From NCBI GenBank assembly GCA_963735115.1, contig CAVTJR010000003.1:1096641-1160640 (forward strand): a DNA stretch of 64,000 bases, given 5' to 3'. The translations under genes and the position numbers were made by a program. The stretch comes from an uncultured Actinomycetota bacterium. Lineage in GTDB: Bacteria; Actinomycetota; Acidimicrobiia; Acidimicrobiales; Bog-793. Under the pieces are notes generated by a model, which was not told where the DNA came from, did not search any database, and saw nothing but the letters and a program-made list of their open reading frames with translations. Below are positions 28-30,319 of this stretch, one piece after another (the stretch's first letter is position 1; every line of letters starts with the position of its first letter).

Positions 28-273
28 ATGACCGAGCAAGACGCCGTTGTCGACATCCTCGCGCGAGAGACGGCCCTGAGCGCCTCGGATTTGTCGAGCG
101 AGTGGTCACTCATCGATCTCGGCGTGACCTCGTTCGTGATCGTGCGCGTCCTCGTCGCCTTCGAGGACCATTTCGAGACGGAATTCTCCGTCGAGCAGAT
201 GGAGGAAGTCGTGAGCACTCCGGTGGCTCAGCTGCCGGAGTTCGTCCGACGAGCGCTCGCAGTCGGGAGCTGA
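28..273 (+). CDS. stand-alone carrier protein (PCP/ACP-like)
   Basis: 81-aa ORF with a carrier-protein helix pattern. Candidate phosphopantetheine serine in LIDLGVTSF. Stop lies 3 nt before the adenylase start. Confidence 0.7.
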   Translation: MTEQDAVVDILARETALSASDLSSEWSLIDLGVTSFVIVRVLVAFEDHFETEFSVEQMEEVVSTPVAQLPEFVRRALAVGS

Positions 274-276
274 GCA

Positions 277-1821
277 GTGGACGTCCTCGAGCTGATCCTG
301 GATCGTGCGCGCACCAGCCCCGATCGTCCCGCCGCAAAGGACCGTTCGAGCGATATCACCTACGGCGAGCTGGAGCAGGCGGTCGCCGAGCTCGCGAGCG
401 GACTCGGCGAACAGGGTGTCCGGGAAGGCGATCGCGTGTGTCTCCACCTCCCGAATTCAGTCGAGTTCCTGGTGGCGGCGCTCGCCTGTATGTGGGTGGG
501 GGCGATCTTCGTGCCGCTGGCGACGACGGATCCGGCGCCCCGCCGGCGCGCCGTCGTCGAGAACTGCGAGCCGGCGCTCGTGCTCGCCGACGCCGAGATG
601 CTGTCGGTTGCAGAGCGCGATGGCGAGCGGCTCTACGAGGGACGCCTGGTCCTTCCCGTAACTGCCGTCAACCGACCTGCCGGTGCGGCGCCGGCCCGGG
701 CGGACGACGACGACCGGCCGGCGTACTGCATCTATACGTCGGGCACGACGGCTTTGCCGAAGGGGGTGCTCATCGGGCATCGCTCTTTTCTCTGCGCGGT
801 TCTCGCCGCCGCCGAGCTGCTCGAGCTCGACGAGACGACTCGTTCCCTCTGCGTCTCGTCGTTTCACTTCGACGGTTCCTACGGCACCTTGTTCCCCACA
901 CCCGTCGCTGGGGGGTCGCTCGTGATCCCGCGACGCGAGGCCTTGATGCTCCCGCGGCTCTTCTTCAGGACGGTGGCGGACGAGCAGGTGACTCATACGA
1001 GCATGTCCCCGACTTACCTCCGGCTCCTGCTGCCCAGCCGCCACCTGCCCGAGCTGGCCCGGACGCCGCTTCGTACCATGGCCTTCGGCGGGGACGCCCT
1101 CTTCGCCGACGATCTCGAGCGGCTCTGGGCTTCGGTGCCCAGCCTTCGCGTCTTCAACCGCTACGGGCCGACCGAGACCACGATCGCCGTGACCACGCAC
1201 GAGCTGACGCCGGAGATTGTGGCTCTCGGGGATCCGCTGCCCATCGGTCGGCCACACGCAGGCGTCACCTTCTGGCTCGTCGACGACGAGGGCAAGATCA
1301 TCGACCGCCCGGGCGACGTGGGCGAGCTCTACATCGGCGGCAATCATCTCATGATCGGGTACTGGCGCGAACCGGCACTCATGAGCGAGGTGATGCGCAC
1401 CGACGTCGTGCCGGGAGAGACGGTCTACCGGACCCGCGACCTGGTGTTTCGCGATGACTCAGGTAGCTATCACTACGTCGACAGGTCGGATCGAGTGGTG
1501 AAGCGCAGCGGCATGCGCATCTCCCTTGTCGAGATCACCGCCTCCTTGACGAGCCTGAGCAGCATCTCGAAGGCGCACTGCGTGGCCTACGACAAAGACG
1601 GTGGAGTCGGCATCGCGGCTTTTGTCGTGCCGATCGTCGCCATCACCGGCCCGGAGCTTCGCCATGCAGCCCGCGACCGCCTGCCGGCGACGATGCTGCC
1701 GGACGTCATCGAAGTCGTGGCCGACTTCCCCCTCACCGGCTCCAACAAGGTGGACGAGCGGGCGATGCTGCAAGCCGCCGGGTTGCAGGAGTTGGGCAAG
1801 GAGGGACTCCGGTCCGGCTGA
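277..1821 (+). CDS. stand-alone NRPS-type adenylation enzyme (ANL superfamily)
   Basis: Core motifs: A3 YTSGTTALPKGV, A4 FHFDGS, A5 NRYGPTETT, A7 YRTRDL, A8 YVDRSDRVVKRSGMRISLVEI, A10 PLTGSNKVD. Confidence 0.9.
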   Translation: MDVLELILDRARTSPDRPAAKDRSSDITYGELEQAVAELASGLGEQGVREGDRVCLHLPNSVEFLVAALACMWVGAIFVPLATTDPAPRRRAVVENCEPALVLADAEMLSVAERDGERLYEGRLVLPVTAVNRPAGAAPARADDDDRPAYCIYTSGTTALPKGVLIGHRSFLCAVLAAAELLELDETTRSLCVSSFHFDGSYGTLFPTPVAGGSLVIPRREALMLPRLFFRTVADEQVTHTSMSPTYLRLLLPSRHLPELARTPLRTMAFGGDALFADDLERLWASVPSLRVFNRYGPTETTIAVTTHELTPEIVALGDPLPIGRPHAGVTFWLVDDEGKIIDRPGDVGELYIGGNHLMIGYWREPALMSEVMRTDVVPGETVYRTRDLVFRDDSGSYHYVDRSDRVVKRSGMRISLVEITASLTSLSSISKAHCVAYDKDGGVGIAAFVVPIVAITGPELRHAARDRLPATMLPDVIEVVADFPLTGSNKVDERAMLQAAGLQELGKEGLRSG

Positions 1822-1870
1822 GGGCGCTGTCTGCGGCCCGTTGTCGCGGGTCGCGAAACCGCCGGCCGCA

Positions 1871-3682
1871 TCAGCGGAGAAAGTGCCGGCTGGCGTAGTC
1901 GACGATCAAGTCGGACACCTCGTCTCGATCCCTCGGATGGCGTAGGGCGTGATCGAGGGCGGAGATCATCTCGAGCTGCAGCTCTCCTGCGTTGGCGGAT
2001 CGCAGGCGAGGGTGGTCTGCCGCGTGCCGGAAGGGTCGTATCTCCTCAGAGCCGCAGATCAACAGCACGTTCGATCCAGCTAACACGAGGTCCGCCAGGT
2101 GCTCGCTCGGGCCGCTTTTCGGGCCTCCTGGGCGGGTTCCCAAACGCCACACAAGTGTGCGGTAGGGCCGGCCGAGTCGATCGAGGGCCGAGCGGATGCT
2201 TCGCCGCGCCCTCACCGTGGCCATCGGGTAGCGGGTGCCGATCCACCGGACGAGCGGAACCTGCTCCTCGAGCCATCGAATCGATGTCACTTTGTTCGTC
2301 GCCGTTGCGAGATGCGGTTCCGGGAGGAAGAACTTGCGTCGCGGATCGGCCGCACCGCCGTGCTCCATCTCCGGCGCCGGGAACGACACAGCCGGGTTCA
2401 GCGCGCAGACGCCCCGCGGCGACAGGATGGCCGCGGCCTCGAGTACGTGGTAGCCGCTCGAGCACAAGCCGAAGAGCACGACGTTCGAGGGTGCCTCTGG
2501 CGAGAGGGCGCGGGCGACGTCAACGACATCCTCGATCGCCGAGTAGGGGTAGACCCGCGGGGGCGTCGAGCCCCTCGGAGGGCTGTCGCCGACGCCGCTG
2601 AGATCCATGCGAACGCACCGGAGCCCCGCGGTGGCAAGGCGACGGCTGAGGTCGACCCAGAGTCGTCCGGGGCCGATGCGATGCTCGTTGGCGACGTTGA
2701 CGAACAGACACACCGGGCCGGTTGCGCCCTCCTTCGGCTCGGTCGATATCGAGAACAGCCCGAAGGGCCCGAGACGCACAGCACGCTCGACGACCGGCGT
2801 CGGCAGTCGGTCGCCGCTCTCGGACGCAGCCGCCCGATTGTGGCGCAAGGTGACGGCCACCTCGGCAGGCCGCGGCAGGGTGACCGAATGGCGGTCCTTT
2901 GGCATGACGTCGTCGATCCAGTCGACGATGGTTGCCAAGGCGCCGGCCGGCACGACCTGGAGCGGCGTTGGCATATCGAGGAGGTCGTCTTGGCCTGCCA
3001 CCTTGCGGTGCTCCACGTTCGGCAGGACGAGGCGGTCCACGAGGGTGCGCTCGGCCGGGTGGTCGACTCGAGTGAGCAGGAGCACCCGCTCCGCCAGAGT
3101 CGCCGTCGTCTCGTCGAATTCGAGCAGCGAGAGCTCACGCAGGATCTCTGGCGGGAGGAGGAAACCCGGAATGTCGTCTGGGGAGATGTTCGATTTACCC
3201 GCAACCTGGATGCGCAGGCTCAGCATGCGTTGCTCTCGAACGAACGACCGTCCGCTCGCGCACGGGTCCCACATGACGAGGGCTTCGAATGGTTCGAGGG
3301 CGCTGGTGAGTCCGGCAAGGAGGGCGCCGACGCGCATGCCCACGAGAGCGATGCGGGTCGCTCCCAACCCTCGCACGAAGTCAACGGCGTGGCGCACGTC
3401 ATCGAGCAACCCGATCGTGGCGTCCTGCTGATCGGTCCGGTCGAACGAGTCACCCGTCGAGCGGTAGTCGAAGCGGAGAGCGAGCAAGCCGGCGTCTGCG
3501 AGACTCCCGGCCAGGCGAGCGAATGTGGAGTATGCGCTCGTGTGCTCCCTGCCAAGCGGCGGGCAGAGAACGACGGCGCCGCGAACCTCGGCGCTGTTGG
3601 TATTGATGAGCCCGAACAGCGGTGATTCCTCCGGGCCGAACCAGGCCGACAGCGGCTGGTCAGGCGGGCGCTCGGACTTCAT
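1871..3682 (-). CDS. fused double alpha/beta-hydrolase-fold protein (N-half elbow GMRVG, C-half elbow GLCSS)
   Basis: 603 aa in two homologous halves (..LRFDYRSTGDS.. and ..VRMDLSGVGDS..). Nucleophile-elbow positions read directly from the translation. Lies 12 nt downstream of the ATP-grasp gene. Confidence 0.7.
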   Translation of the reverse strand: MKSERPPDQPLSAWFGPEESPLFGLINTNSAEVRGAVVLCPPLGREHTSAYSTFARLAGSLADAGLLALRFDYRSTGDSFDRTDQQDATIGLLDDVRHAVDFVRGLGATRIALVGMRVGALLAGLTSALEPFEALVMWDPCASGRSFVREQRMLSLRIQVAGKSNISPDDIPGFLLPPEILRELSLLEFDETTATLAERVLLLTRVDHPAERTLVDRLVLPNVEHRKVAGQDDLLDMPTPLQVVPAGALATIVDWIDDVMPKDRHSVTLPRPAEVAVTLRHNRAAASESGDRLPTPVVERAVRLGPFGLFSISTEPKEGATGPVCLFVNVANEHRIGPGRLWVDLSRRLATAGLRCVRMDLSGVGDSPPRGSTPPRVYPYSAIEDVVDVARALSPEAPSNVVLFGLCSSGYHVLEAAAILSPRGVCALNPAVSFPAPEMEHGGAADPRRKFFLPEPHLATATNKVTSIRWLEEQVPLVRWIGTRYPMATVRARRSIRSALDRLGRPYRTLVWRLGTRPGGPKSGPSEHLADLVLAGSNVLLICGSEEIRPFRHAADHPRLRSANAGELQLEMISALDHALRHPRDRDEVSDLIVDYASRHFLR

Positions 3683-3694
3683 ATTCGCCTGACG

Positions 3695-4972
3695 CTACTC
3701 ATAGACGACCGAGACCTCCTCACGCAGGCGTCGATCGAGAGCCCGAAGCTCCGCGACGTCGTCCACGGTGCCCTCGGCGGCAAAGACGAAGTCTCGATAG
3801 CCCTTGCGCCAATCGACCGACTGGCCAGGGCCGCGGTTGAGCAGCAGGTGCTCCACGCCCGGAAACGTCGCAGCCTCGTCGAATCCCTGCAGGCTGAGGA
3901 CACGGTGAGCGGACATGGGGGCCTGGATCACGGATCGAAACACGACTCGATCCATCTGCAGCAGCCTCTCGTGGGGAAGCTGCTCACCGAGTGCCAGTCG
4001 ACACCCCACATCGTAGAGGTCGAGCTTGCTCAGACGCCCGATCATCTCCGGTATTCCGCCGCCTGGTCGTCCGTTCACCTCGATGAGGCGAGGGCCGCTC
4101 GGCGCCAGCTTGATCTCCGTGTGCAGGCAGCCGCTTTCTATCTCGAGTGCCCTGGCTGCATCGACCGCCAGTTGGAGAACGGCGGCTCCATCCTCGTCGG
4201 AGAGCTCTGCCGGCATGAAATTGCCGGTCTCGCGAAACGGCTCGACGAAGCGGAAACGCCCCGTCATGGCGACGTTGCTCACGCGCCCGCCGCTCACGTA
4301 GCTCTCGACCGAGACGACTGGGGCGATCTGCTCGTCTCGTGACGGAGCTGCCGGTATGAACTCCTCCACCAGCATGGCTTCGCCGATCCCGTCTCGAGAG
4401 AGCTGCGACAGCGCCTCGAGGAGATGAGGGAACGACGGCACCGAGACGACGTTTTCGCTGCCCGTTCCGTGCCGTGGCTTGAGCACCGCCGGGAAGGAGA
4501 TGCGGCTCTCGATGTCGGCCAGGGCAGCGCCGTCGCCCGCCGGGGGAACCTCGGCGTAGCGAGGGACGGCAACGCCGCCTTGGTGGAGGGCGCGCCGCTG
4601 CACGAATTTGTCGACGAGCCGCTCCGCCACCTTCGGGGTATGAAAGGGCAGCTCGAGCTCCGCGGCGATCTCCGCCAGCCTGAGCATGCCGGCGTCCTGG
4701 AAGGTCACGATGCCGTCGGGTCTGTGGCGTCTGATGGCGGTGGCTGCCTGCGAAGTAGGCAGGCCTTCCAGGTGAACGACGTCCCCGAGCTTGCGCAGCA
4801 TCGCCGCGTGCACGGCGGCGACGTGGCGGTGCACCGGAGGGGTGGAATCGACCAGCCAGAGCAGCTCGTACCGCCCGGCCGCGAGGGGTGCGAGCGCCAT
4901 GGGGGACAGCTCCAACGGACTCGTCAGCACGGCCATGAGCGGCCGGCTGCGCTGCGGGCGAGCGGGCATCAT
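3695..4972 (-). CDS. ATP-grasp enzyme, L-amino-acid-ligase-like
   Basis: ATP-grasp hallmarks LVEEFI and HTEIKLAPSGPRLIEVNGRPGGG. ORF is open to 5203, but the first ~77 codons have poor third-position GC. Start placed at ATGATG 4972/4969; 4936 is an alternative. Confidence 0.75.
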   Translation of the reverse strand: MMPARPQRSRPLMAVLTSPLELSPMALAPLAAGRYELLWLVDSTPPVHRHVAAVHAAMLRKLGDVVHLEGLPTSQAATAIRRHRPDGIVTFQDAGMLRLAEIAAELELPFHTPKVAERLVDKFVQRRALHQGGVAVPRYAEVPPAGDGAALADIESRISFPAVLKPRHGTGSENVVSVPSFPHLLEALSQLSRDGIGEAMLVEEFIPAAPSRDEQIAPVVSVESYVSGGRVSNVAMTGRFRFVEPFRETGNFMPAELSDEDGAAVLQLAVDAARALEIESGCLHTEIKLAPSGPRLIEVNGRPGGGIPEMIGRLSKLDLYDVGCRLALGEQLPHERLLQMDRVVFRSVIQAPMSAHRVLSLQGFDEAATFPGVEHLLLNRGPGQSVDWRKGYRDFVFAAEGTVDDVAELRALDRRLREEVSVVYE

Positions 4973-5165
4973 CGCAGGTCCTGGCCGAAGGTTGCGGCCG
5001 TATCCGCCGACACGCCCGTCCGCCCGGGAGTCAGAGTCGCCTCGCCTGGGTGGCAAGGCAGCACCCTCAGGAGCGAGTCCAGCGGGCCGTGAAGTCACCC
5101 TCACCTCGGTGGCGCTTCCAGCACTCGGGCGGAGCCGGCTCCCACCCCCCGACTCACTTCGCGAG

Positions 5166-6941
5166 TCATCCGAGCAGCTCCTCGACGCAGCGTTGAGCGT
5201 CAAGGAAGACGCGTAGTCTGCTCTTCGGCGAGGGGAGATAGTGCGTGAAGTACCGCACGCCCTCCGTCAGCGCTCCCAGCAGGGAAAGATGCTGCTGCAC
5301 GCGCCCGTCTCGGTCGATGGGGTGGAAGTCCCTCGTGAGGGCCACGCTGCCGACGGGGGTGTCACCGTACTTGAACTGCTGCAGCCGTCCCTGCTGATAC
5401 AGGTTCGTCAGCAGCGGCGATGAGGAGCGATGCAGGGTCGGGTCCTCAAGATACCCCTGTACCAGCACGTCCACCGGTGCGGAGAAGGGCGTGTCGAGCT
5501 CCCTCGAACGGACCGTCCGACCGGAGTGTGACGTCGTCAGTCGAGGAGCAGGGCCGAAGGGGGCTTTCACGACCCCTGCGTCCATCAGCGCCAGCAGCTG
5601 CTGGGAGCGGATCGCCGGAGGTCCCGCCACGAGGCGGCTCACCTTGGAGCGGATGTTCGACTGGAAGTCGAGGTACGACTCGAGCGAGAGCCCGCCGAAC
5701 TCGATGACGGTTCGCATGGCGTCGCGCTGGAAGCGGAGCACCTCAGAAGCGGCCTTGACGGCGCTCGCCGGACCCTTCAGCGCCTCGTCCAGGTCCGTTT
5801 CGACCATGGCGTACACGCGGTCCTGGTAGTCCGTCGCCGACACGAAGCTGTCCTCGGGAGCGAAGAAATTTCGGCTGGCGTCGAACGAGCCGTAGCGCGC
5901 CGCGTAAGGCGCCACGACCGACTCGAAGTCGTTGATCGAGGACTGCTCCAGCCGGGCACGCACCTCTTTGGCGGCGTCCGGGCCTGCGGCCAGAGCAGCC
6001 GAGTGCAGGTAGTACCGGGCCTGCATCTCTGCGAAGATGAGGGGAAGCATCGTCGTCCGGAGATCGACGCGGCCGGCATCGGCCCGAATGGCGGCGACGG
6101 CCTCCTCGGTGCAGATGACCGAGGCATAGTCGTCGGTCTCGTCCAGAGCTTCGACGGCCTTGGCACAGTATGGGAATCCGCTTCGTGAGAACACGTAGAT
6201 GCGCGGCTCACGTCCGCTCGCCCGGTATCGCAAGCGATCGCCGCGCGGCACGAAGGAGCCGCCGTTGCCGAGCGTGAGCGCCGTGATGGCGTCAGTGGCA
6301 ACAAGGCCCATACCGACGATGCCGACAGAGGCGGTCGAGGGGATGGCGTCGACGTAGGGCGTGACGGGATACGGCCTCACCAGGTGCTCGGGATGATCGA
6401 GGTTGCCCGTGTGACCGGTCGTGAGGATGACGTGGTTGACGGCAAGGACCTCGCCGGTGTTGAGATACACGTGCTCGAGTCCGTCCGGTTGGCTGACGAT
6501 GTCGACGGCGAGCGCTCGGTGCGGGACGATCTCGAGCGGCCACGGCGCGTCCTCCACGAGCGTTTCGAAGAACCATTGCAGGTAAGCCCCGAGGACGCGC
6601 CGAGGCAGGTAGTCGTGGGGCGTGACCTCGCGTCCCGAGCGCGAGACGCGGCAACTGTCGCCGTTCCAGCGGTAGCCGACCTGCTTCGTCCATTCGTACA
6701 GGCCGACGCCGTAGCGGGGGGAGGCTCCCTCGTCGTCCCACGGGTAGAGCGAGAGCTGGCCGCACGGCGTGTTCAGGAGGAGGTACTCGGGCTCGTCCAA
6801 GGCGTACACGCCGGGTCCGGCCGTGCCGACCTCTACGACATGGACTCGAGTCGGGCACCGCTCAGTGCGAACAGCGTCCGCCAGACGCTCCAGCACGCAC
6901 AGCCCCCAGGCGCCGGCTCCGACGAGCGCGACCTCATTCAT
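5166..6941 (-). CDS. FAD/NAD(P)-binding oxidoreductase (YdhS/NAD_binding_9-like)
   Basis: Start placed at MNEVALVGAGAWGLCVLERL (GxGxxG dinucleotide fold). ORF is open to 7052, but that extension covers a structured intergenic hairpin. Confidence 0.7.
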   Translation of the reverse strand: MNEVALVGAGAWGLCVLERLADAVRTERCPTRVHVVEVGTAGPGVYALDEPEYLLLNTPCGQLSLYPWDDEGASPRYGVGLYEWTKQVGYRWNGDSCRVSRSGREVTPHDYLPRRVLGAYLQWFFETLVEDAPWPLEIVPHRALAVDIVSQPDGLEHVYLNTGEVLAVNHVILTTGHTGNLDHPEHLVRPYPVTPYVDAIPSTASVGIVGMGLVATDAITALTLGNGGSFVPRGDRLRYRASGREPRIYVFSRSGFPYCAKAVEALDETDDYASVICTEEAVAAIRADAGRVDLRTTMLPLIFAEMQARYYLHSAALAAGPDAAKEVRARLEQSSINDFESVVAPYAARYGSFDASRNFFAPEDSFVSATDYQDRVYAMVETDLDEALKGPASAVKAASEVLRFQRDAMRTVIEFGGLSLESYLDFQSNIRSKVSRLVAGPPAIRSQQLLALMDAGVVKAPFGPAPRLTTSHSGRTVRSRELDTPFSAPVDVLVQGYLEDPTLHRSSSPLLTNLYQQGRLQQFKYGDTPVGSVALTRDFHPIDRDGRVQQHLSLLGALTEGVRYFTHYLPSPKSRLRVFLDAQRCVEELLG

Positions 6942-6997
6942 GGTGCGCAATGGCCTGACCGCTCGTGTGCTCCCCGCCGACCCACTCTTATACGCTA

Positions 6998-7062
6998 CCG
7001 CCACGGGGCTCTGCCCATTTTCAAGTGGGCAGCGTGGCGGTGTTTCAGGCATCGCAGATGCC
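6998..7062. other. interrupted 15-bp hairpin (6998-7040) plus 6-bp hairpin (7048-7062) in the divergent intergenic region
   Basis: CCGCCACG/CGTGGCGG outer stem and CTGCCCA/TGGGCAG inner stem with a 5-nt bulge. Second hairpin is GGCATC-gca-GATGCC. Read directly from the sequence. Confidence 0.5.
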
Positions 7063-7132
7063 AGGGAGACTGCTCGTGAGCCACGCGAGGGGTCGGATCG
7101 AGGGTTGAATCAACAGGGTCACGCGGCTCTCT

Positions 7133-8245
7133 ATGCTGGTCACGGGTCCCACTCGTTCAGTGGAGGTGTTACATCCCAGTCTTTATCGACTCGGCGGAGC
7201 CCAGGTCGTCCCAAGCGAACGGCACGGGGGGAGCGCGCGTGGTCGCGGCGGCGGTCAGCCGGCGCTCGAGATCGCGATCGTCAACAACATGCCTGACGCC
7301 GCCTTTGCTGACACTGAAGATCAGTTCACGACCTTGCTCAACGAAGCCGCCGGTCATCTCGAGCTGCGCGTCGGGCTCTATAGCCTGCCCGGGCTACGGC
7401 GCAACGAGGGCACCGCGAGTTACATCGCGGCGAACTATCGAAGCATCGAGCAGCTGTTCGACCGGCGAGTCGACGCCGCCATCGTGACGGGGACCGAGCC
7501 GCTCGCCGGGCGCCTGCCGGACGAGCCCTATTGGGCTGCTTTGACGGAGCTGATCAGTTGGGCAGAGGTATCGACCACCTCTACCGTCTTGTCCTGCTTG
7601 GCAGCTCACGCTGCGGTTCTGCTCTTCGACGGTATCGAGCGGGAGCGACTTCCGCAGAAGTGCTCCGGTGTCTTCGCTCATGAGTCGCTCACGTCGCACC
7701 CTCTCGTCGAGGGCCTGCGTGGACCTGTATTCGTGCCCCACTCGCGCCTCAACGACGTCCCGGGTCACCACCTGTCGGACGGCTATGCAAGCTTGCTCGG
7801 ATCACCCGAGATCAGCTGGACCGTGTTGGCACGGGAGAGCGGCAATTGCCTGTTCATGTTCGTGCAGGGCCACCCCGAGTACTGGACGACGAGCCTGTTG
7901 CGGGAGTACAAGCGCGATTTACAGCGCTACCTCCGAGGCGAGCGTGACTCGTCGCCCCCCGTCCCGCTCCATTACCTCGACGAAGAAGGAGAGCGCCTGC
8001 TCACTCGATTCGCCACCGAGGCACGGGCGCGTCCCTCGTCGGCGGACCCGATGGCGGGCTTCCCTTTCGATGAGGTCAAGGAACGCGTGGTAAATACGTG
8101 GCGGCCCCACGGGGCGCGCTTGTACAAGAACTGGATCCAGGAGATCCTGCGGCGGAGGCAGGACGGCCCCCCAGGCAACGGCGAGGCGCCGGCGCCGGAT
8201 CGGGCCGTCGACGAGCAAGGAACGAGGTCTGTTGGTGCGGGATGA
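7133..8245 (+). CDS. metA: MetA-family homoserine O-acyltransferase
   Basis: IAIVNNMPD (cf. ILNLMPKK), IVTGTEPL, catalytic-Cys region VLSCLAAHAA, HSRLND, GHPEYW. N-terminal ~45 aa and exact start are uncertain. Confidence 0.8.
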   Translation: MLVTGPTRSVEVLHPSLYRLGGAQVVPSERHGGSARGRGGGQPALEIAIVNNMPDAAFADTEDQFTTLLNEAAGHLELRVGLYSLPGLRRNEGTASYIAANYRSIEQLFDRRVDAAIVTGTEPLAGRLPDEPYWAALTELISWAEVSTTSTVLSCLAAHAAVLLFDGIERERLPQKCSGVFAHESLTSHPLVEGLRGPVFVPHSRLNDVPGHHLSDGYASLLGSPEISWTVLARESGNCLFMFVQGHPEYWTTSLLREYKRDLQRYLRGERDSSPPVPLHYLDEEGERLLTRFATEARARPSSADPMAGFPFDEVKERVVNTWRPHGARLYKNWIQEILRRRQDGPPGNGEAPAPDRAVDEQGTRSVGAG

Positions 8246-9515
8246 GACGATTGCTCTCCACGGCGGGTACACACCTGATTCGACGAAGGCCGTGGCGGTG
8301 CCTATCTATCAGACCGTCGCCCATGAGTTCGACGACGCCGATCATGCGGCAGCCGTGTTCGACATGGACATCCCGGGGTTCCACTACAACCGGCTGAACA
8401 ACCCAACCAACCAGGTTCTGGAGCATCGCCTTGCAGCCCTTGAACTCGGCGTCGGCGCCCTCACGCTCAGCTCGGGCACAGCGGCCGTGCTGTACTCGTT
8501 GCAGAATCTCGCCGGCCTCGGTGACAACATCGTCTCCGCCCCGCAGTTGTACGGAACGACCTACACCCTGTTCGTGCACATCCTGCCTCAGCAGGGTCTC
8601 GAGGTTCGCTTGGCGGCGGACGACACCCCAGCCGCCATGGAAGCCCTCATCGACGACCGCACGAAGGCGATCTTCTGCGAGAGCATCGGCAACCCCGCCG
8701 GCAACGTCGTCGATCTCGAGGCCGTAGCGGCGCTCGCCCACTTCCACGGCATACCGCTCATCGTCGACAACACGGTGGCCACGCCGATGATGATCAAGCC
8801 CGTCGAGCACGGCGCCGACATCGTCGTGCACTCGCTGACGAAGTTCGTCGGCGGCCACGGCACGACGCTGGCGGGAGGCATCGTCGACAGCGGCAAGTTC
8901 CCGTGGGCCGACCACCCGGACAGGTTCCCCATGTTCTCCCGACCGGAACCCTCCTTCCACGGGGTCGTATACCCAGAGCGCTTCGGTGACGCCGCCTATA
9001 TCGTGCGCTGCAGAACGGTGGGTCTGCGAAACGCCGGGGCGACACTGTCGCCGTTCAGCGCCTTTTTGGTATTGCAGGGTCTCGAGACCATGTCGGTCCG
9101 ACTCGACCGCCACGAGGTGAACGCCCGAGCTGTTGCCGCCTACCTCGCCGAGGATCGGCGCGTCTCCTGGGTGGACTTCGCCGGTTTCCCCGATCACCCC
9201 TATCACGAGCTTTCTGAGCGCTATCTGAAGGGGCGGTGCTCGTCGCTGTTCACCTTCGGTGTCGTCGGTGGCTATGACGCCGGCTTGCGGTTCTTCAACT
9301 CGGTGAAGCTCTTCAAGCGACTCGTCAACCTGGGGGACGCCAAGTCGCTCGTGAGCCATCCGGCCTCGACCACCCACCGACAGCTGACAGCCGAGGACCT
9401 GAAGGTCGTAGGCGTCACGCCGGACATGATCCGACTGTCGGTTGGGATCGAGCACATCGACGACATCATCGAAGACATCGACCAAGCGCTGAGTGCCGCC
9501 TGCGGCGCCGAGTAA
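8232..9515 (+). CDS. metY: O-acetylhomoserine sulfhydrylase / aminocarboxypropyltransferase (PLP, Cys/Met-metabolism family)
   Basis: 427 aa with PLP-lysine motif HSLTKFVGGHGT. N-terminus TIALHGGY..PIYQT. Overlaps the metA stop by 14 nt. Confidence 0.9.
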   Translation: MVRDETIALHGGYTPDSTKAVAVPIYQTVAHEFDDADHAAAVFDMDIPGFHYNRLNNPTNQVLEHRLAALELGVGALTLSSGTAAVLYSLQNLAGLGDNIVSAPQLYGTTYTLFVHILPQQGLEVRLAADDTPAAMEALIDDRTKAIFCESIGNPAGNVVDLEAVAALAHFHGIPLIVDNTVATPMMIKPVEHGADIVVHSLTKFVGGHGTTLAGGIVDSGKFPWADHPDRFPMFSRPEPSFHGVVYPERFGDAAYIVRCRTVGLRNAGATLSPFSAFLVLQGLETMSVRLDRHEVNARAVAAYLAEDRRVSWVDFAGFPDHPYHELSERYLKGRCSSLFTFGVVGGYDAGLRFFNSVKLFKRLVNLGDAKSLVSHPASTTHRQLTAEDLKVVGVTPDMIRLSVGIEHIDDIIEDIDQALSAACGAE

Positions 9516-9559
9516 CATCTGGCGGTGTTCGGACATTGCTGCAGTCAAAGGAGAGTTCG

Positions 9560-9724
9560 TTGCACCATGCCATCGAGTGCATCGGCGACGATCCTCGGAC
9601 GCGGTCGGTGGTTCTGCGGTTGATCGGAGGCGCCTCAGCACTCACTGAGCCGCTCCACTTGGGGGTCCGGTTCGCCGCCCGCCTTGACGACGCCGGCGCT
9701 ACGGCGGACCTGGCGGGATCATGA
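9560..9724 (+). CDS. possible 54-codon coupling ORF or crotonase-like remnant
   Basis: AAGGAG 6 nt upstream of TTG 9560. Stop TGA overlaps the ATG of the next carrier-protein gene (ATGA). Third-position GC is high. No recognisable full domain. Confidence 0.25.
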   Translation: MHHAIECIGDDPRTRSVVLRLIGGASALTEPLHLGVRFAARLDDAGATADLAGS

Positions 9725-10014
9725 CCTTGGGAACGGAGCCATCGATGACCGACGAGATTCGCCGGGTGGTGGCCCAGCACGGTCGCCTCTCGGTCCCGAT
9801 GTCGCAAGTGGCGGACGACGACGACCTCTACTTCGCCGGCATGACCTCACACGCGAGCGTCAGCATGCTGATCGCCCTGGAGGAAGCCTTCGGACTGGAG
9901 TTCCCAGAGGAAATGCTGCGCCAGAGCACGTTTCAGTCGGTCAATTCGATCGCGGCAGCGCTCGACGTTCTGATCGAGGACAAAAAGGCCGCTGAGCTTG
10001 GCCCACGAACCTGA
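9721..10014 (+). CDS. stand-alone acyl/aminoacyl carrier protein
   Basis: 97 aa with DLYFAGMTSHASVSMLIALEEAFGLEF (Ppant-serine context). Stop overlaps the next gene. Confidence 0.75.
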   Translation: MTLGTEPSMTDEIRRVVAQHGRLSVPMSQVADDDDLYFAGMTSHASVSMLIALEEAFGLEFPEEMLRQSTFQSVNSIAAALDVLIEDKKAAELGPRT

Positions 10015-10915
10015 GGAGGATTTTCGCTCGGGGCTGATGACCGCCGGCCTGCTCATCGCCACCGAGGTCGATGGGATCTACCTCCGGTCCGGGAACTTCG
10101 AGAGCGTGGCACGCGCCATCGATGTCCTCGTGAGCGCGGCCGGATCGGATCAGAACGCTGAGGTCTTGCATCTGCCGGCAGTCATGCCGCGTAGCGTCCT
10201 CGAGCAGTCCGCCTACATCCGGGCGTTCCCGGACCTCGTCGGCTCGGTCAACACATTCGAGGGTAATGACGCCCTGCACATCGAGATCCTGCGCCGCCTC
10301 GAACGCGGCGAGGACTGGGCAGAGCTCTTCGGCCGCTCCGACGTGGTGCTCTGTTCGGCGGCTTGTCACCTGGTCTACCCGACGTGTCGTGGCCGGTTGC
10401 CCGAGGGTGGTCGACGCTTCGAGGTCTTCGGTCAGTGCTTCCGGCACGAGCCGAGCCTCGATCCGGCGCGGATGCAGGCCTTTCGCATGCACGAATTCGT
10501 CTACGTGGGCGACGCCGAGGGCGCCGTGGCCCATCGGGATGCCTGGCTCGAGCGGGCCGCCCAGCTGCTCGGCGGGCTCGGGCTTCCCGTCACGGCGGTG
10601 CTGGCGAGTGACCCCTTCTTCGGCCGGGCGGGCAAGCTGCTCTCGGCGAATCAACGGGCGGAAGCCTTGAAGCACGAGGTCGTGACCTCGGTGCAGCCGG
10701 GAGAGGGGCCGGTCGCCGTCGCGTCGTCCAACTGCCATCTCGACCACTTCGGCCGTGCTTTCGGCATCGAGAGCGCGGACGGAACCGTCGCCCATAGCGC
10801 CTGTGTCGGCTTTGGGACCGAGCGCATCGTGCTGGCGCTGCTGGCAGCGCACGGGCTCGACCCGGTGTGCTGGCCGTCCAACGTGCGCGATCAGCTGTGG
10901 CCGTCGAGGACTTGA
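9998..10915 (+). CDS. class-II aaRS-like amino acid:[carrier-protein] ligase (truncated SerRS-type catalytic core)
   Basis: 305 aa with motif-2-like CFRHEPS and motif-3-like VGFGTERIVLALL. No tRNA-binding domain. Cys/Glu/Cys candidates for the Zn site. Adjacent to a carrier protein. Alternative start ATG 10037. Confidence 0.75.
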   Translation: MAHEPEEDFRSGLMTAGLLIATEVDGIYLRSGNFESVARAIDVLVSAAGSDQNAEVLHLPAVMPRSVLEQSAYIRAFPDLVGSVNTFEGNDALHIEILRRLERGEDWAELFGRSDVVLCSAACHLVYPTCRGRLPEGGRRFEVFGQCFRHEPSLDPARMQAFRMHEFVYVGDAEGAVAHRDAWLERAAQLLGGLGLPVTAVLASDPFFGRAGKLLSANQRAEALKHEVVTSVQPGEGPVAVASSNCHLDHFGRAFGIESADGTVAHSACVGFGTERIVLALLAAHGLDPVCWPSNVRDQLWPSRT

Positions 10916-10933
10916 GGGCGGCGACCGCCCCGC

Positions 10934-13732
10934 TCAGCCGAGCGCCTTCGCCAGGGCCGTCACGATCGGCGTTCCCAGGCCAGTAGCCATGTCGTAATGC
11001 TTCGTGGCTGGGTAGAGGCCTCCGTTCGTCGTCGTGTAGTCGTTGTTGCCGACCTTGACGTCGTTGACGACGGCCTTGCCTTCGGCCACCAGCTTGTAGA
11101 GGGCAGGGTTCAAGAAGCCCAGCTTGTGGACCTTGCCCTTGTAGGCGTCGAGGAGGGCGGTCAATGCCGCCCAGAGGGGCGTGGCGGCACTCGTGCCGCC
11201 GACGACCGTCCACTTGCCGCCGAAGACGATGACGTAGCCATGGGACGGGTCGGCGCTGGCGGAGACGTCGGGGAGCTCTCGACAGAGCGTTCTGCCCGTG
11301 GCGCCGCAGGGGACCCCCGAACTGAGCGAGCTCACGACGCCGGGGCCGCGCTGGTACTTGGGCATCGTCCACCAGGAAGAGATGCCGCCCGTGCCGGCGC
11401 CCTCGGCGAACAGGGGCTCGTCCCAGACCGACTGCGTGGGCGCAGGGCCGAGCTTGGTGAGATCGGTGCCGCCCACGCCGGTCACGAACGGCTGCTCGGA
11501 CGGATCCTCCACGCTCAAGAAGAGCGGCATCCAGACGAAGCCGCCGGCTGCATCGGCAACCCAGGCATAGTCCAAGAGCGGGTCCGTGGCGACGGCGTAA
11601 GGGTCGGTGATACCCGTAATGAGCCTCGTCACCTTGTTCGTCCCGCCGGAGATGACCGCTACGCCGGCTCCGCTGCCGTCGGAGCCTTCAGCTGTGACCA
11701 GGACACCGCTCCCGTTCGGATCGACGGCCAGCGACGTGGGGATGACCAACCCACTTAGCGTCGCTGTCGCCACGAAGTCGCCGGTGCTCGCCTCCAGCAC
11801 CGTCACGGTGTCGCTCTCGGCGTTGCCGATGTAGAGCTTGTTCGAGGAGGCGTTGACGGCGAGCCCGTACGGCTCCTCGCCGACCGATACCTCGGCCAGC
11901 GTCAGCGAGGTGGGGCAGCCGCTCGTGGTGGTGGCGTCACATGCCGCGCCGCTGAACTCGCCAACTTCGTCGTCGCCGAAGTCGGTGAGGAACACCTGGT
12001 TGGTGGAAGCGTCCACCGCCACGTCTGCCGGCTCGTCGCCGCCGTATGCACCAACGATGGTGAGCGCCGACTCGTCGATGACGCCGATGTCGTCAATGCC
12101 GGCAAGGGCCACGTAGGCGGTGCCGGTGGCGCTGTCGACGGCGATACCGATGGGCTCGCTACCGGGGTCGTTGATGACCGTCATGGGGGTGGCGCTGCAG
12201 CCGGACTGGTTGGCGCTGTCGCACGTCGCCCCGTCGATCTCGGCGACGATGCCAAGGGCGTCTTCCGAGACCCAGAGTTGGTTCGTGGTCGGATCCACGG
12301 CGAGGCCCTCTGGCTCGGTCGTCGATCCGAGAGCGATCGTCCCGACGGTTTCGAGCGTGGCCTCGTTGGCGACGGTGATGTCCCCGGTGATCGAATTGGC
12401 GAAGTAAACGGTCTGGGTCGCCGGGTCCACGGCGACGGCGTCAGGCCCAGGAGGCTGGCTGATCTCGGCCGGCGAACCGTTCGCCATGCAGCCTTCCGAG
12501 CCCACGTCACCGTCGGCCACGAAGGTGGACTGCCCCTGGATGGCGGCCTCCTTGAAGATGGAGTTCTCCGCCTTGATGACTGACTCGGGGACGAAGACGT
12601 CACAGCCGAAGGGGGCGGTCGACCAGCTCGAGGAGATGACCTGTGCCTTGTCCTGAGTGACGATCTTGTCGTAGCCATCTGTCGGGCCCGTACCGCTCCC
12701 GATCGTCTCGTAGACCCGTACAGATGCCTTGGGGGCGAGGCCGATGACGGTTTCGATGTCGAGGGCCGCCTCAGGAGAGAAGTCGGCGTCCTTGCTTCCG
12801 CCGTCGACGGACACGTTCGTGAGCGGGACATGGGTGTGGTAGCAGGACTGGAACTTCGCGATGTCGCTCTTGGAGTACGTCTGCTCCTCGAACAGGGCGA
12901 TGGTGACGCCTTTGCCGAGATCGCCCTTGGCGAAGACCCCGTCGAAGGAGTACGCCTGCGCGAGCTGCGTCTCGGTCCAGCCGGAGAACTCCTTGGCCAC
13001 CGCCTTGGCTGTCGCGCAGGCGATGGGGCCGCTCGTGGGGACGACGGAGGGAACGGCCGTCAGTCGTGGGTGACGGTGGGCGGCGATCGGACCGGGCGCA
13101 CGTGAGCTGACGGTGTCGAGGCCGATGATCCCCTGCACGTCTCGGGCGATGGCGCTCGGCAGCGTGGGGGCGTCGGTGTTCACGATGGCCGTGGCCGGCA
13201 CGGTGCCGGCCGGCTGGCGGTAGAGGCGCAGTGAGACGTGCAGCGCTCTTTCCACGAGCCCGACGTTGGCGCTCACCGGGATGATCAGGTGGTCAGGGGT
13301 GATGGCGCCAGGCCGCAGGCCGGCCTGGCGAAGCACGGCCGTGACCGCCGAGATGGTGGCAGGCGTAGGCCCGAAGACGGAGGCGAATTGACCGCGGGCA
13401 AGGAAGTGGCCATAGAGGGGGTTGCCCGGGGTGGAGACGGCCGTGGCGAACGAGGTCATGGCCGCCGGGTTGCGCGGCTCGAGCACGACGTCGATGTGCA
13501 GTGGGGTAGCCGCCCGGGCGGCACCGAGCGGGTGGTCGGCCAGCGGGACGGCGGCGGCCTTGCCCACAGGGGCCAGGTACGACGTGAGCACGGCATGCAG
13601 GCGACCGGCGGACGCCGCTGCCTGGTCGCCGGCTCCAGCCGTGGCGAGAGCGACCAAAGCGGAGCACACGAGCAACGTCCCACCTAGGCGGAACCGAAAG
13701 TTCCGACGGCTCGTCCGGCGAGTGACCATCAT
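10934..13732 (-). CDS. secreted sedolisin (S53) peptidase with pro-kumamolisin-type propeptide and an internal 6-7-blade YVTN-like beta-propeller
   Basis: Signal peptide and activation domain. Catalytic blocks are AALDIETVIGLAPKASVRVYE, ISSSWS, ADGDVGSEGC, then about 330 aa of 40-50-aa repeats (DPxT..LYV.., ..P.GLAV). The core resumes at PFVTGVGGT and VVGGTSAATPLWAAL. Confidence 0.85.
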   Translation of the reverse strand: MMVTRRTSRRNFRFRLGGTLLVCSALVALATAGAGDQAAASAGRLHAVLTSYLAPVGKAAAVPLADHPLGAARAATPLHIDVVLEPRNPAAMTSFATAVSTPGNPLYGHFLARGQFASVFGPTPATISAVTAVLRQAGLRPGAITPDHLIIPVSANVGLVERALHVSLRLYRQPAGTVPATAIVNTDAPTLPSAIARDVQGIIGLDTVSSRAPGPIAAHRHPRLTAVPSVVPTSGPIACATAKAVAKEFSGWTETQLAQAYSFDGVFAKGDLGKGVTIALFEEQTYSKSDIAKFQSCYHTHVPLTNVSVDGGSKDADFSPEAALDIETVIGLAPKASVRVYETIGSGTGPTDGYDKIVTQDKAQVISSSWSTAPFGCDVFVPESVIKAENSIFKEAAIQGQSTFVADGDVGSEGCMANGSPAEISQPPGPDAVAVDPATQTVYFANSITGDITVANEATLETVGTIALGSTTEPEGLAVDPTTNQLWVSEDALGIVAEIDGATCDSANQSGCSATPMTVINDPGSEPIGIAVDSATGTAYVALAGIDDIGVIDESALTIVGAYGGDEPADVAVDASTNQVFLTDFGDDEVGEFSGAACDATTTSGCPTSLTLAEVSVGEEPYGLAVNASSNKLYIGNAESDTVTVLEASTGDFVATATLSGLVIPTSLAVDPNGSGVLVTAEGSDGSGAGVAVISGGTNKVTRLITGITDPYAVATDPLLDYAWVADAAGGFVWMPLFLSVEDPSEQPFVTGVGGTDLTKLGPAPTQSVWDEPLFAEGAGTGGISSWWTMPKYQRGPGVVSSLSSGVPCGATGRTLCRELPDVSASADPSHGYVIVFGGKWTVVGGTSAATPLWAALTALLDAYKGKVHKLGFLNPALYKLVAEGKAVVNDVKVGNNDYTTTNGGLYPATKHYDMATGLGTPIVTALAKALG

Positions 13733-19200: not shown

Positions 19201-19470
19201 CGGAAGTGTGATGTCGAAGAGCTGACCGAAGTCCTTGTTGTTGACCTGCGCCGGTGAGATGGCGGCATGCGGATACCAGTTCGTGCCCAACTCGTCGGCA
19301 TCGGCACCCACCACCGAGGAGCCGGCGGCGGTAGACGGTTTCGCGGCGGAGCCGGCAGCCAACTGTGGAAGGACGGCGATCTGCAGAGCCGCCACGATCG
19401 ACAACACCAGACCAGCCCGACCTGCGCGCCAGCGGGCGGCGCCAGCACAGGCAGGGTCGACTGATCGCAT
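16207..19470 (-). CDS. large secreted protein: PQQ-like beta-propeller + Ig-like (choice-of-anchor-D-type) domains + C-terminal L-type (legume-like) lectin domain
   Basis: Start at ATG 19470 with GGAGGGA upstream, followed by a signal peptide. Propeller repeats (AQPIVANGILLVAT..AYGLNPRTGAVEWS). Three Ig-like modules. C-terminus YLQLTPA..AGAAFW..FTADM..GLTFALV..YLGFTAATG. Confidence 0.8.
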   Translation of the reverse strand: MRSVDPACAGAARWRAGRAGLVLSIVAALQIAVLPQLAAGSAAKPSTAAGSSVVGADADELGTNWYPHAAISPAQVNNKDFGQLFDITLPKVDGVAPGEIYAQPIVANGILLVATEDDNAYGLNPRTGAVEWSRNFGPAWQSSTINCGDLAPTVGITGTPVVDTATGVAYFTTDTATPDGGALWQMQAVHLATGTEMAKFPVAIEGAATNLLGDSFDPTFNPVYQMQRPGLALVNGEVYAAFGAHCDESTWYGWIAGVRSTGVLNDMWVDETTDSADGGGIWGPGGIVVDNSGNLYVATGNGGTPSPGPGLDVPEPAGLGECVIKLSTGGAHLQLTDYFCPSDAAALNTYDGDLGSGSPIGLPASFGTPSEPDLLVQVGKSGEVYLLNRNDLGGVDQGPPSDLDDVVSETGPRGGVWSHPAAWPGDGGYLYITTASAGSTAAASTGELDVYQRVVTDGQVSLNWVGTGPENPFGSSAPIVTSDRSQAGSAIVWEVVRTGTGNSAKLMALGAVPVAGNSTTPAASLPLLWEGSVGNSTKFNPPLAYQGRIYVANYDGQVLAFGPRKNAPPLTGANVEAADTVLGSSSETTATLSASGPVTVRSVSVSVSTAGASGAFRTPPLSKQLHLTAGKRISLPVKFVPEIVGGQEGTLTLTTNLGTVSVRLSGRGIPEGVPIAATPPSVSFGIQPIGGGPVVETVSFKNTSPSSFTVDSVGIESGSPAPFSLANGFAPPEILAAGASLSVPVDFTPPATSGDFVQTFSDHLVVTTSVGEATVPLEGQAAPPPQIAISSLKLNVGTVAIGQSGIVSFTVGNRGGTPLAINKSKPPVADGFSPVTSLPEGSEIAAHHALVETVRFSPERAGRASATWVINGDDGSGLQTVTFTGTGAREHRLPSPLRPGWHLSGRASRSHGYLQLTPASADAAGAAFWSEPIAPVGLRASFTADMTGGSGGSGLTFALVSGRSPPGRAGLDGPGLGLAGLPAVAVALQSSPSAQNPNRNSIGVVTSTAGGTALVWRQLIDSSSSLRRLPLQVTVTIAGGTVTVELDGFTLLATKLRLPKHVYLGFTAATGTYTDRHLVSGVQVSYP

Positions 19471-19664
19471 TCTCGAGTGTTCCCTCCGCGTGAGCCAGCC
19501 CTTGCGAATACTCGGCAACCGTAGCTGGAGGGTCAGCCCATCGCTCTTGTCCACCGCTGGTGCCCACGGCGCAACGACCGAGCGAGGGGAGAGGACGTGT
19601 CAACAAGCCGGGCCGAGCCCGCCTCTAGCCATGCCGGCTTCGCCTCCACCGATAGTCTCTCAGC

Positions 19665-27637: not shown

Positions 27638-27740
27638 TGGAAGCCCTGACATGGAAGCCCCTGACATCGAAGCCCCTGACATCGAAGCCCCTGACATCGA
27701 AGCCCCTGACATCGACGCCCCTGACATGGAAGCCCTGAGA
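27634..27740 (+). repeat. 15-bp tandem repeat (ctgacatcgaagccc, about 6.5 copies) filling the whole intergenic spacer; encodes a 34-codon mini-ORF
   Basis: Units start at 27646, 27661, 27676, 27691, 27706 and 27721. Mini-ORF 27634-27738 reads MMEALTWKPLTSKPLTSKPLTSKPLTSTPLTWKP. Its ATG overlaps the upstream stop (ATGA) and its stop lies 1 nt before the next ATG. Confidence 0.9.
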
Positions 27741-30232: not shown

Positions 30233-30319
30233 CTACGATCCGCCTCGGTCCTACGGGGCGCCCTCGAGCGTGCGGGCATGTGAGCGAGCACACAGCGATG
30301 ACAAAGGAGCCGGAGTGCG

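Follow-up and report, generated by a model that had tools for sequence, protein, structure and literature searches.

A fused double alpha/beta-hydrolase beside two carrier-loading systems in an uncultured Acidimicrobiales bacterium: a predicted arginine-elbow pseudo-hydrolase joined to a candidate cysteine-dependent transferase

The fused hydrolase gene

We analysed a gene encoding a fused double alpha/beta-hydrolase in a 64,000-nucleotide (nt) stretch of contig CAVTJR010000003.1 (assembly GCA_963735115.1, positions 1,096,641 to 1,160,640), which derives from an uncultured bacterium of the order Acidimicrobiales. This whole stretch is referred to as the window, and coordinates are those of the window unless another locus is named. 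The gene and the features of its product were as follows.

1871..3682, minus strand: fused double alpha/beta-hydrolase gene (603 amino acids (aa); matches to Pfam Hydrolase_4/Abhydrolase_1 and NCBIfam TIGR03101/TIGR03100, AlphaFold2 model)
2852..3682, minus strand: N-terminal alpha/beta-hydrolase-fold domain, hydr2_PEP-like, predicted non-catalytic (residues 1-277; TIGR03101 match at residues 19-157; AlphaFold2 model)
3326..3340, minus strand: N-half nucleophile elbow G115-M-R117-V-G119 (R117 codon 3332-3334, by codon check)
3266..3268, minus strand: Asp139, following N-half strand beta6 (without variation in the actinobacterial clade, not so in Proteobacteria)
2990..2992, minus strand: Gln231, at the catalytic-His position of the N-half, after strand 223-228 (conservation and AlphaFold2 model; Y/H/W in Proteobacteria)
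1874..2812, minus strand: C-terminal alpha/beta-hydrolase domain, hydr1_PEP-like (residues 291-603; helical lid insert at about 431-535; TIGR03100 match at residues 325-432; AlphaFold2 model)
2453..2470, minus strand: C-half nucleophile elbow G405-L-C407-S-S-G410 (C407 codon 2462-2464, by codon check; predicted nucleophile)
2042..2044, minus strand: Glu547, predicted triad acid, on the loop that follows strand 538-543 (conservation and AlphaFold2 model)
1949..1951, minus strand: His578, predicted triad base, on the loop that joins strand 568-572 to helix 583-600 (conservation and AlphaFold2 model)

The start codon is the ATG at 3682, with only four in-frame codons between it and the preceding stop. 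Both pairs of strings by which a first-pass annotation had compared the halves (VVLCPPLGREH...LRFDYRSTGDS and VCLFVNVANEH...VRMDLSGVGDS) were found in the translation. A spacing of 12 nt separates this ATG from the stop codon of the ATP-grasp gene that precedes it, also on the minus strand, and because of this spacing the two genes were considered operonic. A terminator and promoter scan between the hydrolase gene and the convergent adenylation-domain gene found nothing. The guanine plus cytosine content of the window was uniform (~67-70%), and the nearest database relatives of the hydrolase came from Acidimicrobiales metagenome-assembled genomes. Neither a signal peptide nor a hydrophobic N-terminus was seen in the hydrolase sequence, and the protein should therefore work in the cytoplasm.

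Two homologous halves with different predicted active sites

The Pfam scan gave weak Hydrolase_4 and Abhydrolase_1 matches, one per half, and an AlphaFold2 model built from 67 homologues (predicted local distance difference test 86.5, predicted template modelling score 0.88) contained two alpha/beta-hydrolase cores. The halves had been called paralogous in the first-pass annotation, and both comparisons that we made agree with this: BLASTP of half against half gave 31% identity over 90 aa, a weak match (E = 0.004), and profile-profile comparison of the half-alignments gave 96% probability (E = 2.9e-9, 122 columns) with R117 aligned with C407. On these comparisons the two halves are homologous, though not closely. 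In the model, R117 lies between strand 111-116 and helix 118-127, and C407 between strand 401-406 and helix 408-420. Because each sits between a strand and a helix, both occupy genuine nucleophile elbows of the model. Consistent with this, phmmer alignments to solved serine hydrolases placed R117 on the Ser of G-x-S-x-G.

Conservation was assessed in 67 full-length close homologues and in a set of 98 that included Proteobacteria. In the N-half, R117, D139, and Q231 were invariant among the 67; in the larger set R117 was retained in 93 (G in three, S in one), D139 in 88, and Q231 in 85. D139 and Q231 are, judging from these alignments, specific to the actinobacterial clade. Measured against the catalytic triad of the Ollis fold, the N-half has its nucleophile position taken by R117 and its His position by Q231. 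It is predicted to be a pseudo-hydrolase that has lost its triad and is non-catalytic, as the first-pass annotation had proposed from the Arg in its GMRVG elbow. Since this Arg is invariant in a dead site, a retained non-catalytic function of the N-half can be argued.

A homologue encoded on a Shinella zoogloeoides plasmid (locus L014, 7971-9743) possessed a canonical G-H-S-I-G elbow in its N-half, not Arg. This elbow may be a relic of an ancestral active state, or both domains may be active in that protein.

In the C-half, C407 was C in 61 and S in six of the 67 close homologues, and C in 95 and S in three of the 98; such an occasional Cys-to-Ser swap would be expected of a true nucleophile. 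With counts like these, neither R117 nor C407 is at its elbow by chance. H578 was present in 67/67 and 96/98 sequences and N429 in 65/67 and 96/98. E547 was E in 57 and D in nine of the 67, and E in 64 and D in 27 of the 98 (E or D in 91/98). Assignment of the triad relied on topological position in the AlphaFold2 secondary structure together with conservation: C407 follows beta5, E547 follows beta7, and H578 follows beta8. The C-half is thus predicted to hold a complete Cys407-Glu547-His578 triad at canonical topological positions, in agreement with the Cys read earlier from the GLCSS elbow and with the structural check then proposed, namely that it should sit at the elbow with a His/Asp partner, the acid being Glu in this protein.

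The C-half elbow also fits the pattern G-x-C-x-[GS]-G, which is found in the polyhydroxyalkanoate (PHA) synthase PhaC together with a Cys-His-acid triad on an alpha/beta fold. A PhaC-like polymerase, whose Cys domain would join thioester-activated monomers into a polyester or polyamide, is nevertheless very improbable: no PhaC-family match was obtained at E <= 0.01 in Pfam or NCBIfam, no PhaC structure was among the top 50 Foldseek matches, and no phasin or other PHA-related gene was found nearby among the window open reading frames (ORFs) scanned. Membership in the PHA synthase family and in the type II thioesterase family was rejected, as the models of neither family matched.

The nearest solved structures were the thermostable lipase TTL (7q4h), cinnamoyl/feruloyl esterases (3pf9, 7z2x), and MHETase-like enzymes (9pjb, 9pid), with which the canonical alpha/beta-hydrolase fold is shared. 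Foldseek returned generic esterases and lipases only, with template modelling scores of ~0.7 (target-normalised) and 17-20% identity; profile E-values for the N-half went down to 6e-21. Unlike the fused protein, these are single-domain Ser-His-Asp hydrolases, and none has Arg or Cys at the aligned elbow.

Relationship to the exosortase-A-associated hydrolases

A resemblance to the separate hydrolase 1 and hydrolase 2 proteins of exosortase-A (PEP-CTERM) loci had been pointed out in the first-pass annotation. Hidden Markov model comparison with NCBIfam confirmed it. With the full protein, residues 19-157 matched TIGR03101 (hydr2_PEP) at 72.6 bits (E = 3.7e-20; 58.9 bits for the N-half alone) over profile positions 9-150 of 266, and residues 325-432 matched TIGR03100 (hydr1_PEP) at 66.9 bits (E = 1.7e-18; 42.6 bits for the C-half alone) over positions 29-134 of 274. 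These two "hypothetical equivalogs" were the best family matches of the N-half and the C-half, respectively. Neither curated cutoff (202.75 bits for TIGR03101, 168.45 bits for TIGR03100) was reached; the scores are about one third of the cutoffs and cover the first half of each profile. By this measure the fused hydrolase is a relative of the two equivalog families and not a member of either.

The residue preference of the profiles was read by scoring point-mutated queries against them. For the N-half and TIGR03101, the native R gave 58.9 bits, compared with 55.6 (S), 54.9 (C), 54.8 (G), and 55.4 (D). For the C-half and TIGR03100, the native C gave 42.6 bits, compared with 37.0 (S), 37.3 (A), 36.8 (G), and 38.2 (D). 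The R117C version of the N-half gained a TIGR03100 match of 32.6 bits. These scores are indirect evidence that the split-gene profiles also favour Arg (TIGR03101) and Cys (TIGR03100) at the elbow, and since they do, the Arg/Cys pairing appears to be ancestral and older than the fusion.

The likeness extends to gene organisation. The hydr2-then-hydr1 order of the split genes is the domain order of the fusion, and both systems are found in polysaccharide loci that also encode an AMP-ligase and a carrier protein: in the window, the fused hydr2-like and hydr1-like domains have an adenylation domain and a carrier protein adjacent, and glycan genes flank close homologues. The differences are the single chain, the host, which is an Acidimicrobiales actinobacterium, and the partner ligase, which is an aminoacyl-tRNA-synthetase-like amino acid--[acyl-carrier-protein] ligase and/or an amino-acid adenylation domain and not TIGR03098 (186 bits against a cutoff of 592). 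In addition, no exosortase/PEP-CTERM system was found: exosortase families had no match in the 47 window ORFs scanned with Pfam, and no exosortase was seen in related loci L001-L016. Stand-alone hydr1_PEP or hydr2_PEP genes were also lacking among tblastn matches of each half to plasmids, which yielded only fused genes of ~590-1100 aa, and the best 150 phmmer matches of the C-half contained no stand-alone hydr1_PEP, all being fused proteins or fragments. In our leading reading, the fused protein represents the single-chain form of the exosortase-A "hydrolase 2 + hydrolase 1" gene pair, a pair that is so far a bioinformatic label only.

Family distribution and domain fusions

A word-indexed search returned 163 clusters of relatives, nearly all 560-660 aa long. 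Exhaustive phmmer searching with the C-half yielded 161 representatives at E <= 1e-30; with the threshold relaxed to E <= 1e-10 there were 1336, and with E <= 1e-3 there were 4310. Relatives were encoded in at least 573 GTDB species genomes, and hosts belonged to the Acidimicrobiales, Mycobacteriales, Alphaproteobacteria, and Betaproteobacteria. When the halves were searched by tblastn against plasmids and chromids, they always matched adjacent stretches, which proved on inspection to be single genes of ~590-1100 aa. Fused genes were inspected in Azospirillum, Rhizobium, Burkholderia, Cupriavidus, Mycetohabitans, Caballeronia, Shinella, Peteryoungia, and Tsukamurella. The elbows read GVRAG/GICSG in B. 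cenocepacia and GLRLG/GVCSG in C. metallidurans CH34, and the name given to these homologues by the Prokaryotic Genome Annotation Pipeline was "alpha/beta fold hydrolase" only. The first-pass annotation had pointed to the fusion and to the missing exosortase as distinguishing marks; both were seen in the window, but neither is unusual: judging from these searches fusion is the common form of a large uncharacterised family and is not special to the window, and related loci L001-L016 likewise showed no exosortase.

Some homologues carried further domains. A GT4 glycosyltransferase was fused at the C-terminus in P0025 and P0029. A Wzx-type Polysacc_synt membrane domain was fused at the N-terminus in P0186, P0250, and the Rhizobium protein of L009, and at the C-terminus in P0206. 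P0080 had an N-terminal PP-binding (carrier protein) domain.

Other arrangements were also observed in the family. P0199 (1184 aa) had four alpha/beta-hydrolase domains per chain, i.e., two tandem double units. In L006, the P0080 homologue (10001-11590) was interrupted by a DDE transposase insertion, with its C-terminal piece located 1.5 kb downstream (13132-13623). Two fused double hydrolases adjoined each other in L033 (9314-11458 and 11885-13513) and in L042 (9616-11484 and 11971-14118). Each of these pairs consisted of one actinobacterial-type protein (R/D/Q at positions 117/139/231) and one proteobacterial-type protein (R/V/A or H). As both residue types are held by each of the two loci, two functionally distinct subfamilies are suggested.

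Carrier proteins and their loading enzymes

The hydrolase gene lies in a compact cluster (28-10915) in which two independent carrier-loading systems surround it. The other genes of the cluster were the following.

28..273, plus strand: carrier protein (PP-binding, 81 aa), candidate acyl donor (PF00550, 33.7 bits)
277..1821, plus strand: stand-alone amino-acid adenylation domain that would load the adjacent carrier (AMP-binding 248.6 bits; TIGR01733 310 bits against a cutoff of 317)
3695..4970, minus strand: ATP-grasp ligase, directly upstream of the hydrolase in the same operon (start uncertain: the listed ORF extends to 5203, homologues have 402-425 aa)
5166..7052, minus strand: FAD-NAD(P)-binding (NAD_binding_9) flavoprotein, first gene of the same-strand run (Pfam scan)
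7133-8245, plus strand: MetA-like homoserine O-acyltransferase (family profile matches)
8232-9515, plus strand: MetY-like pyridoxal phosphate-dependent gamma-replacement enzyme (family profile matches)
9721-10014, plus strand: second carrier protein, PRK07081 type (98.7 bits against a cutoff of 72)
9998-10915, plus strand: amino acid--[acyl-carrier-protein] ligase (393 bits against a cutoff of 357)

Amino acid:carrier protein ligases are tRNA-synthetase homologues that charge carrier proteins, and were discovered and crystallised in 2010-2013. The window ligase matched the Bll0957 structures (4h2w/3mey) at 230 bits (E = 1e-64 to 3e-67). The MetA/MetY-like pair could supply homocysteine or another gamma-substituted amino acid, and the trio of MetA, MetY, and flavoprotein genes accompanies the hydrolase in many Acidimicrobiales loci. 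No condensation or thioesterase domain was found in the window cluster with Pfam and NCBIfam.

We counted genes within 10 kb of the hydrolase in 57 related loci with at least 7 kb of sequence on both sides. A carrier-loading enzyme was present in 36 loci (63%), being an amino acid:carrier protein ligase in 28 and an adenylation domain in 12, and a carrier protein was detectable in 32. The MetA/MetY pair was found in 16 loci, a gene of the acyl-CoA dehydrogenase (ACAD) family in 14, and DUF1839 in 10. The PRK07081-type carrier protein and the ligase, listed above as the second loading system, were the commonest partners of the hydrolase family. Both types of loader occurred in six related loci (L043, L044, L046, L072, L073, and L074), whereas most had one carrier-loading system only. 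Genes for 4'-phosphopantetheinyl transferases adjoined the hydrolase in L004, L005, L007, and L012. Among 55 hydrolase-bearing plasmid and chromid records, the ligase was encoded within 25 kb of the hydrolase in at least 34, and within 8.3 kb in 24 of these. Burkholderia loci for which a 9-kb view had shown no carrier genes were among them. On the megabase replicons of B. cenocepacia, B. multivorans, B. stagnalis, and Shinella sp. WSC3-e, the distance was 17-24 kb.

The first-pass annotation had regarded the Cys enzyme next to two carrier proteins as a plausible stand-in for a missing condensation or release catalyst. As a carrier-to-carrier shuttle, Cys407 would hand the aminoacyl group to the second carrier or to a cargo amine, and the dead N-half would dock the second carrier. 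The two carrier proteins and two different loaders of the window, the lack of a detected condensation domain, and the co-occurrence of both loader types in the six related loci are in line with such a role, and Cys-dependent alpha/beta-fold shuttles are documented in CmaE and SyrC (PMC8748450). However, the domain fusions of the family involve glycan-assembly proteins, not second carriers, and the adjacent ATP-grasp ligase could already make a peptide bond. Since most loci had one loading system and about one third had none within 10 kb, the general function of the family cannot require two carriers. Fusions and neighbours in the family point to a glycan acceptor instead, and we consider the earlier suggestion improbable.

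Another possibility is that the C-half hydrolyses carrier-bound acyl or aminoacyl thioesters, releasing a product or clearing mis-loaded carriers in a type II-like manner. The alpha/beta-hydrolase fold with its complete predicted triad, the adjoining carrier proteins and loaders, and the lack of a detected condensation or thioesterase domain in the cluster would be compatible with a thioesterase, as would the best PDB sequence match of the C-half, DcsB (7d78/7d79; E = 6e-6; Foldseek rank 48), which we take to be a trans-acting thioesterase-like enzyme. It is not evident why a thioesterase should be fused repeatedly to a Wzx-type flippase or GT4, or why it should need a dead partner domain that is conserved. 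Moreover, there was no Pfam Thioesterase match at E <= 0.01, and a near-invariant Cys instead of Ser is unusual for simple thioesterases. Taking both sides together, we find this role unlikely.

Glycan genes near the hydrolase

Flanking genes of related loci were often connected to glycan assembly. L001 and L002 contained GT4 and beta-helix proteins, and L003 contained Wzy and a flippase. UDP-glucose dehydrogenase, GT4, asparagine-synthase-type amidotransferase, and heparinase-like genes flanked the hydrolase in L004, and a priming phosphotransferase, four glycosyltransferases, and a flippase did so in Tsukamurella. In Shinella L014, flippase, glycosyltransferase, and export genes surrounded the hydrolase, and a carrier protein was absent from the nearest 8 kb. 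In B. cenocepacia L010, for which ORFs were listed only within ~2 kb, a glycosyltransferase-like ORF followed the hydrolase. The TIGR03100-annotated protein Bcam1334 is encoded in the Bep exopolysaccharide cluster of B. cenocepacia beside a membrane acyltransferase (PMC3584217). We did not equate the L010 hydrolase with Bcam1334, as the ORFs around it do not follow the gene order published for Bep, and a literature search on Bcam1334/Bep found nothing functional.

The Shinella locus, the ORF order in L010, and the position of Bcam1334 might instead suggest a carrier-independent glycan esterase or O-acyltransferase that edits acyl decorations of a polysaccharide intermediate by using or removing ordinary acyl groups, the carrier genes being mere neighbours in a large surface-polymer locus. 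However, the amino acid:carrier protein ligase was found 17-24 kb away in the Burkholderia and Shinella replicons named above, and mere neighbourhood hardly accounts for the PP-binding fusion of P0080 or for the loaders that accompany 63% of the loci counted. This alternative, too, appears improbable.

Proposed function

Our leading proposal, to which we give a little less than an even chance, is that the fused hydrolase is a cysteine acyl-enzyme transferase that moves carrier-bound amino-acyl groups, probably onto a lipid-linked glycan, with the Arg domain as a binding module. In the steps that we infer, which cover the acyl-enzyme chemistry, the identities of donor and acceptor, and the role of Arg117, a carrier protein would be charged with an amino acid by the tRNA-synthetase-like ligase or by the stand-alone adenylation domain. 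With His578 and Glu547 activating it, Cys407 would then attack the phosphopantetheinyl thioester to form an acyl-S-enzyme. The acyl group would pass to an acceptor, most probably a hydroxyl or an amino group on a sugar of a lipid-linked glycan intermediate in the cytoplasm, so that the enzyme would act as a transferase and not as a simple hydrolase. An acceptor that is a lipid-linked repeat unit at the inner membrane face would fit the Wzx and GT4 fusions. The invariant Arg of the N-half would bind an anionic group of a partner, be it the phosphate of phosphopantetheine, a pyrophosphate-lipid, or a uronate.

A narrower version, which we put forward only tentatively, is that the protein could be the missing off-loading enzyme of amino acid:carrier protein ligase pathways. 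It would be a cytoplasmic, carrier-dependent glycan aminoacyl-transferase that decorates lipid-linked units just before Wzx flipping, following a Dlt-like logic for exopolysaccharides, and the Arg domain would be a former hydrolase domain turned into a module that binds the pyrophosphate-lipid or the phosphopantetheine arm.

CmaE and SyrC are known to use Cys. Along with LgnA and CouN7, they are alpha/beta-fold enzymes whose active-site nucleophile accepts an acyl or aminoacyl group from a phosphopantetheinyl thioester, after which the group is passed to another nucleophile (PMC8748450), which is the logic proposed here. There are also differences: no sequence-family relationship to these enzymes was detected, the Pfam and NCBIfam scans having given generic hydrolase matches with no CmaE- or SyrC-specific model or reference included, and the four are single-domain proteins of small-molecule nonribosomal peptide synthetase pathways, without an Arg-elbow pseudo-domain and outside glycan loci. 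The Dlt system (DltA, DltC, DltB/DltD) is similar in that an adenylating enzyme charges a small carrier and the amino acid is esterified to a surface polymer; the window adenylation domain scored 216 bits against the DltA model. By contrast, the Dlt transfer proteins are MBOAT and SGNH-like and unrelated to the double alpha/beta-hydrolase, and Dlt transfer takes place across or outside the membrane, whereas the fused hydrolase looks cytoplasmic.

With the ligase operon of Bradyrhizobium and Agrobacterium (Bll0957, Atu2573; ACP-ACAD-ligase-DUF1839-GH2-like, ACP being acyl carrier protein), the window shares the ligase and its cognate carrier type. The window lacks the ACAD, DUF1839, and GH2-like genes and has instead the MetA/MetY-like, flavoprotein, and ATP-grasp genes and a second pair of adenylation domain and carrier. 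The fused hydrolase was the sixth gene of this recurrent operon in Azospirillum, Rhizobium sp. NLR16a, Mycetohabitans, and Acidimicrobiales L007. In a note added in proof in 2010, Aravind and co-workers predicted that such ligase operons aminoacylate a cell-surface sugar, and named as the transferase the ORF beside the ligase (Atu2574); the fused hydrolase was not discussed (PMC2922099). In the loci that we inspected, the gene beside the ligase was DUF1839, a papain-like family (PMC10318531).

Several observations weigh against a carrier-dependent glycan transferase. Dienelactone hydrolase, among others, is a true hydrolase that likewise has a Cys nucleophile. No carrier system was present within 10 kb in 20 of the 57 related loci; some of these apparently carrier-less loci may reflect the counting distance, because the ligase lies 17-24 kb away in Burkholderia and Shinella. 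The core operon (ACP-ACAD-ligase-DUF1839(-GH2)) occurred without a detectable fused hydrolase on plasmids of Rhizobium leguminosarum (L097) and Burkholderia gladioli (L098), so that the operon, although often accompanied by the hydrolase, can do without it. Glycan genes, if present for the window, lie beyond its left edge and were seen only in the 75%-identical L001 and L002. In the proteobacterial operon, the papain-like DUF1839 is an alternative candidate for the transferase (PMC2922099, PMC10318531), and it is mainly because the roles of DUF1839 and the hydrolase must differ where both occur that our confidence stays below one half. Our literature search gave no published function for the fused family or for TIGR03100/TIGR03101 and no downstream fate for the products of the amino acid:carrier protein ligases, and according to a 2022 review the role of the amino acid:carrier protein ligases "remains unknown" (PMC9437257).

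The gene itself is one of hundreds, and what is of wider use is the family-level picture, which offers a testable candidate for a fifteen-year-old question. One widespread family ties the amino acid:carrier protein ligases to the exosortase-A "hydrolase 1/2" pair and, on alignment and model, gains a defined catalytic anatomy: a predicted dead domain with an invariant Arg and a domain with a putative Cys-His-Glu/Asp triad. Independent fusions to a carrier protein, GT4, and a Wzx-type flippase link it to carrier proteins and to glycan assembly. If the proposed transfer is true, it would give a biological role to both the ligases and the "hydrolase 1/2" pair, a general route to aminoacyl decoration of bacterial surface polysaccharides, and a clear case of a pseudo-enzyme domain kept as the partner of an active paralogue.

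Other features of the window

The remainder of the window consisted of housekeeping genes, among which several proteins of note were encoded. A sedolisin-type protease with a pro-kumamolisin activation domain and NHL/beta-propeller repeats (10934-13732, minus strand) adjoined the cluster and was kept in L001 and L002. An immunoglobulin-like/lectin-domain protein of 1130 aa was encoded at 16207-19599 (minus strand). The 835-aa ORF at 27725-30232 (plus strand) combined a sugar-phosphate nucleotidyltransferase, hexapeptide repeats, and a full phosphogluco/phosphomannomutase, which suggests a fused nucleotide-sugar supply enzyme. GCV_T and GDC-P domains were joined in the 824-aa ORF at 34999-37473 (plus strand), an apparent GcvT::GcvP-alpha fusion that was followed by the P-beta subunit (37437-38990), with GcvH (30302-30700) located 4 kb upstream. 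Finally, a 356-aa ORF at 55869-56939 (plus strand) contained an ERCC4-type nuclease domain and a C-terminal Lsr2 DNA-binding domain.

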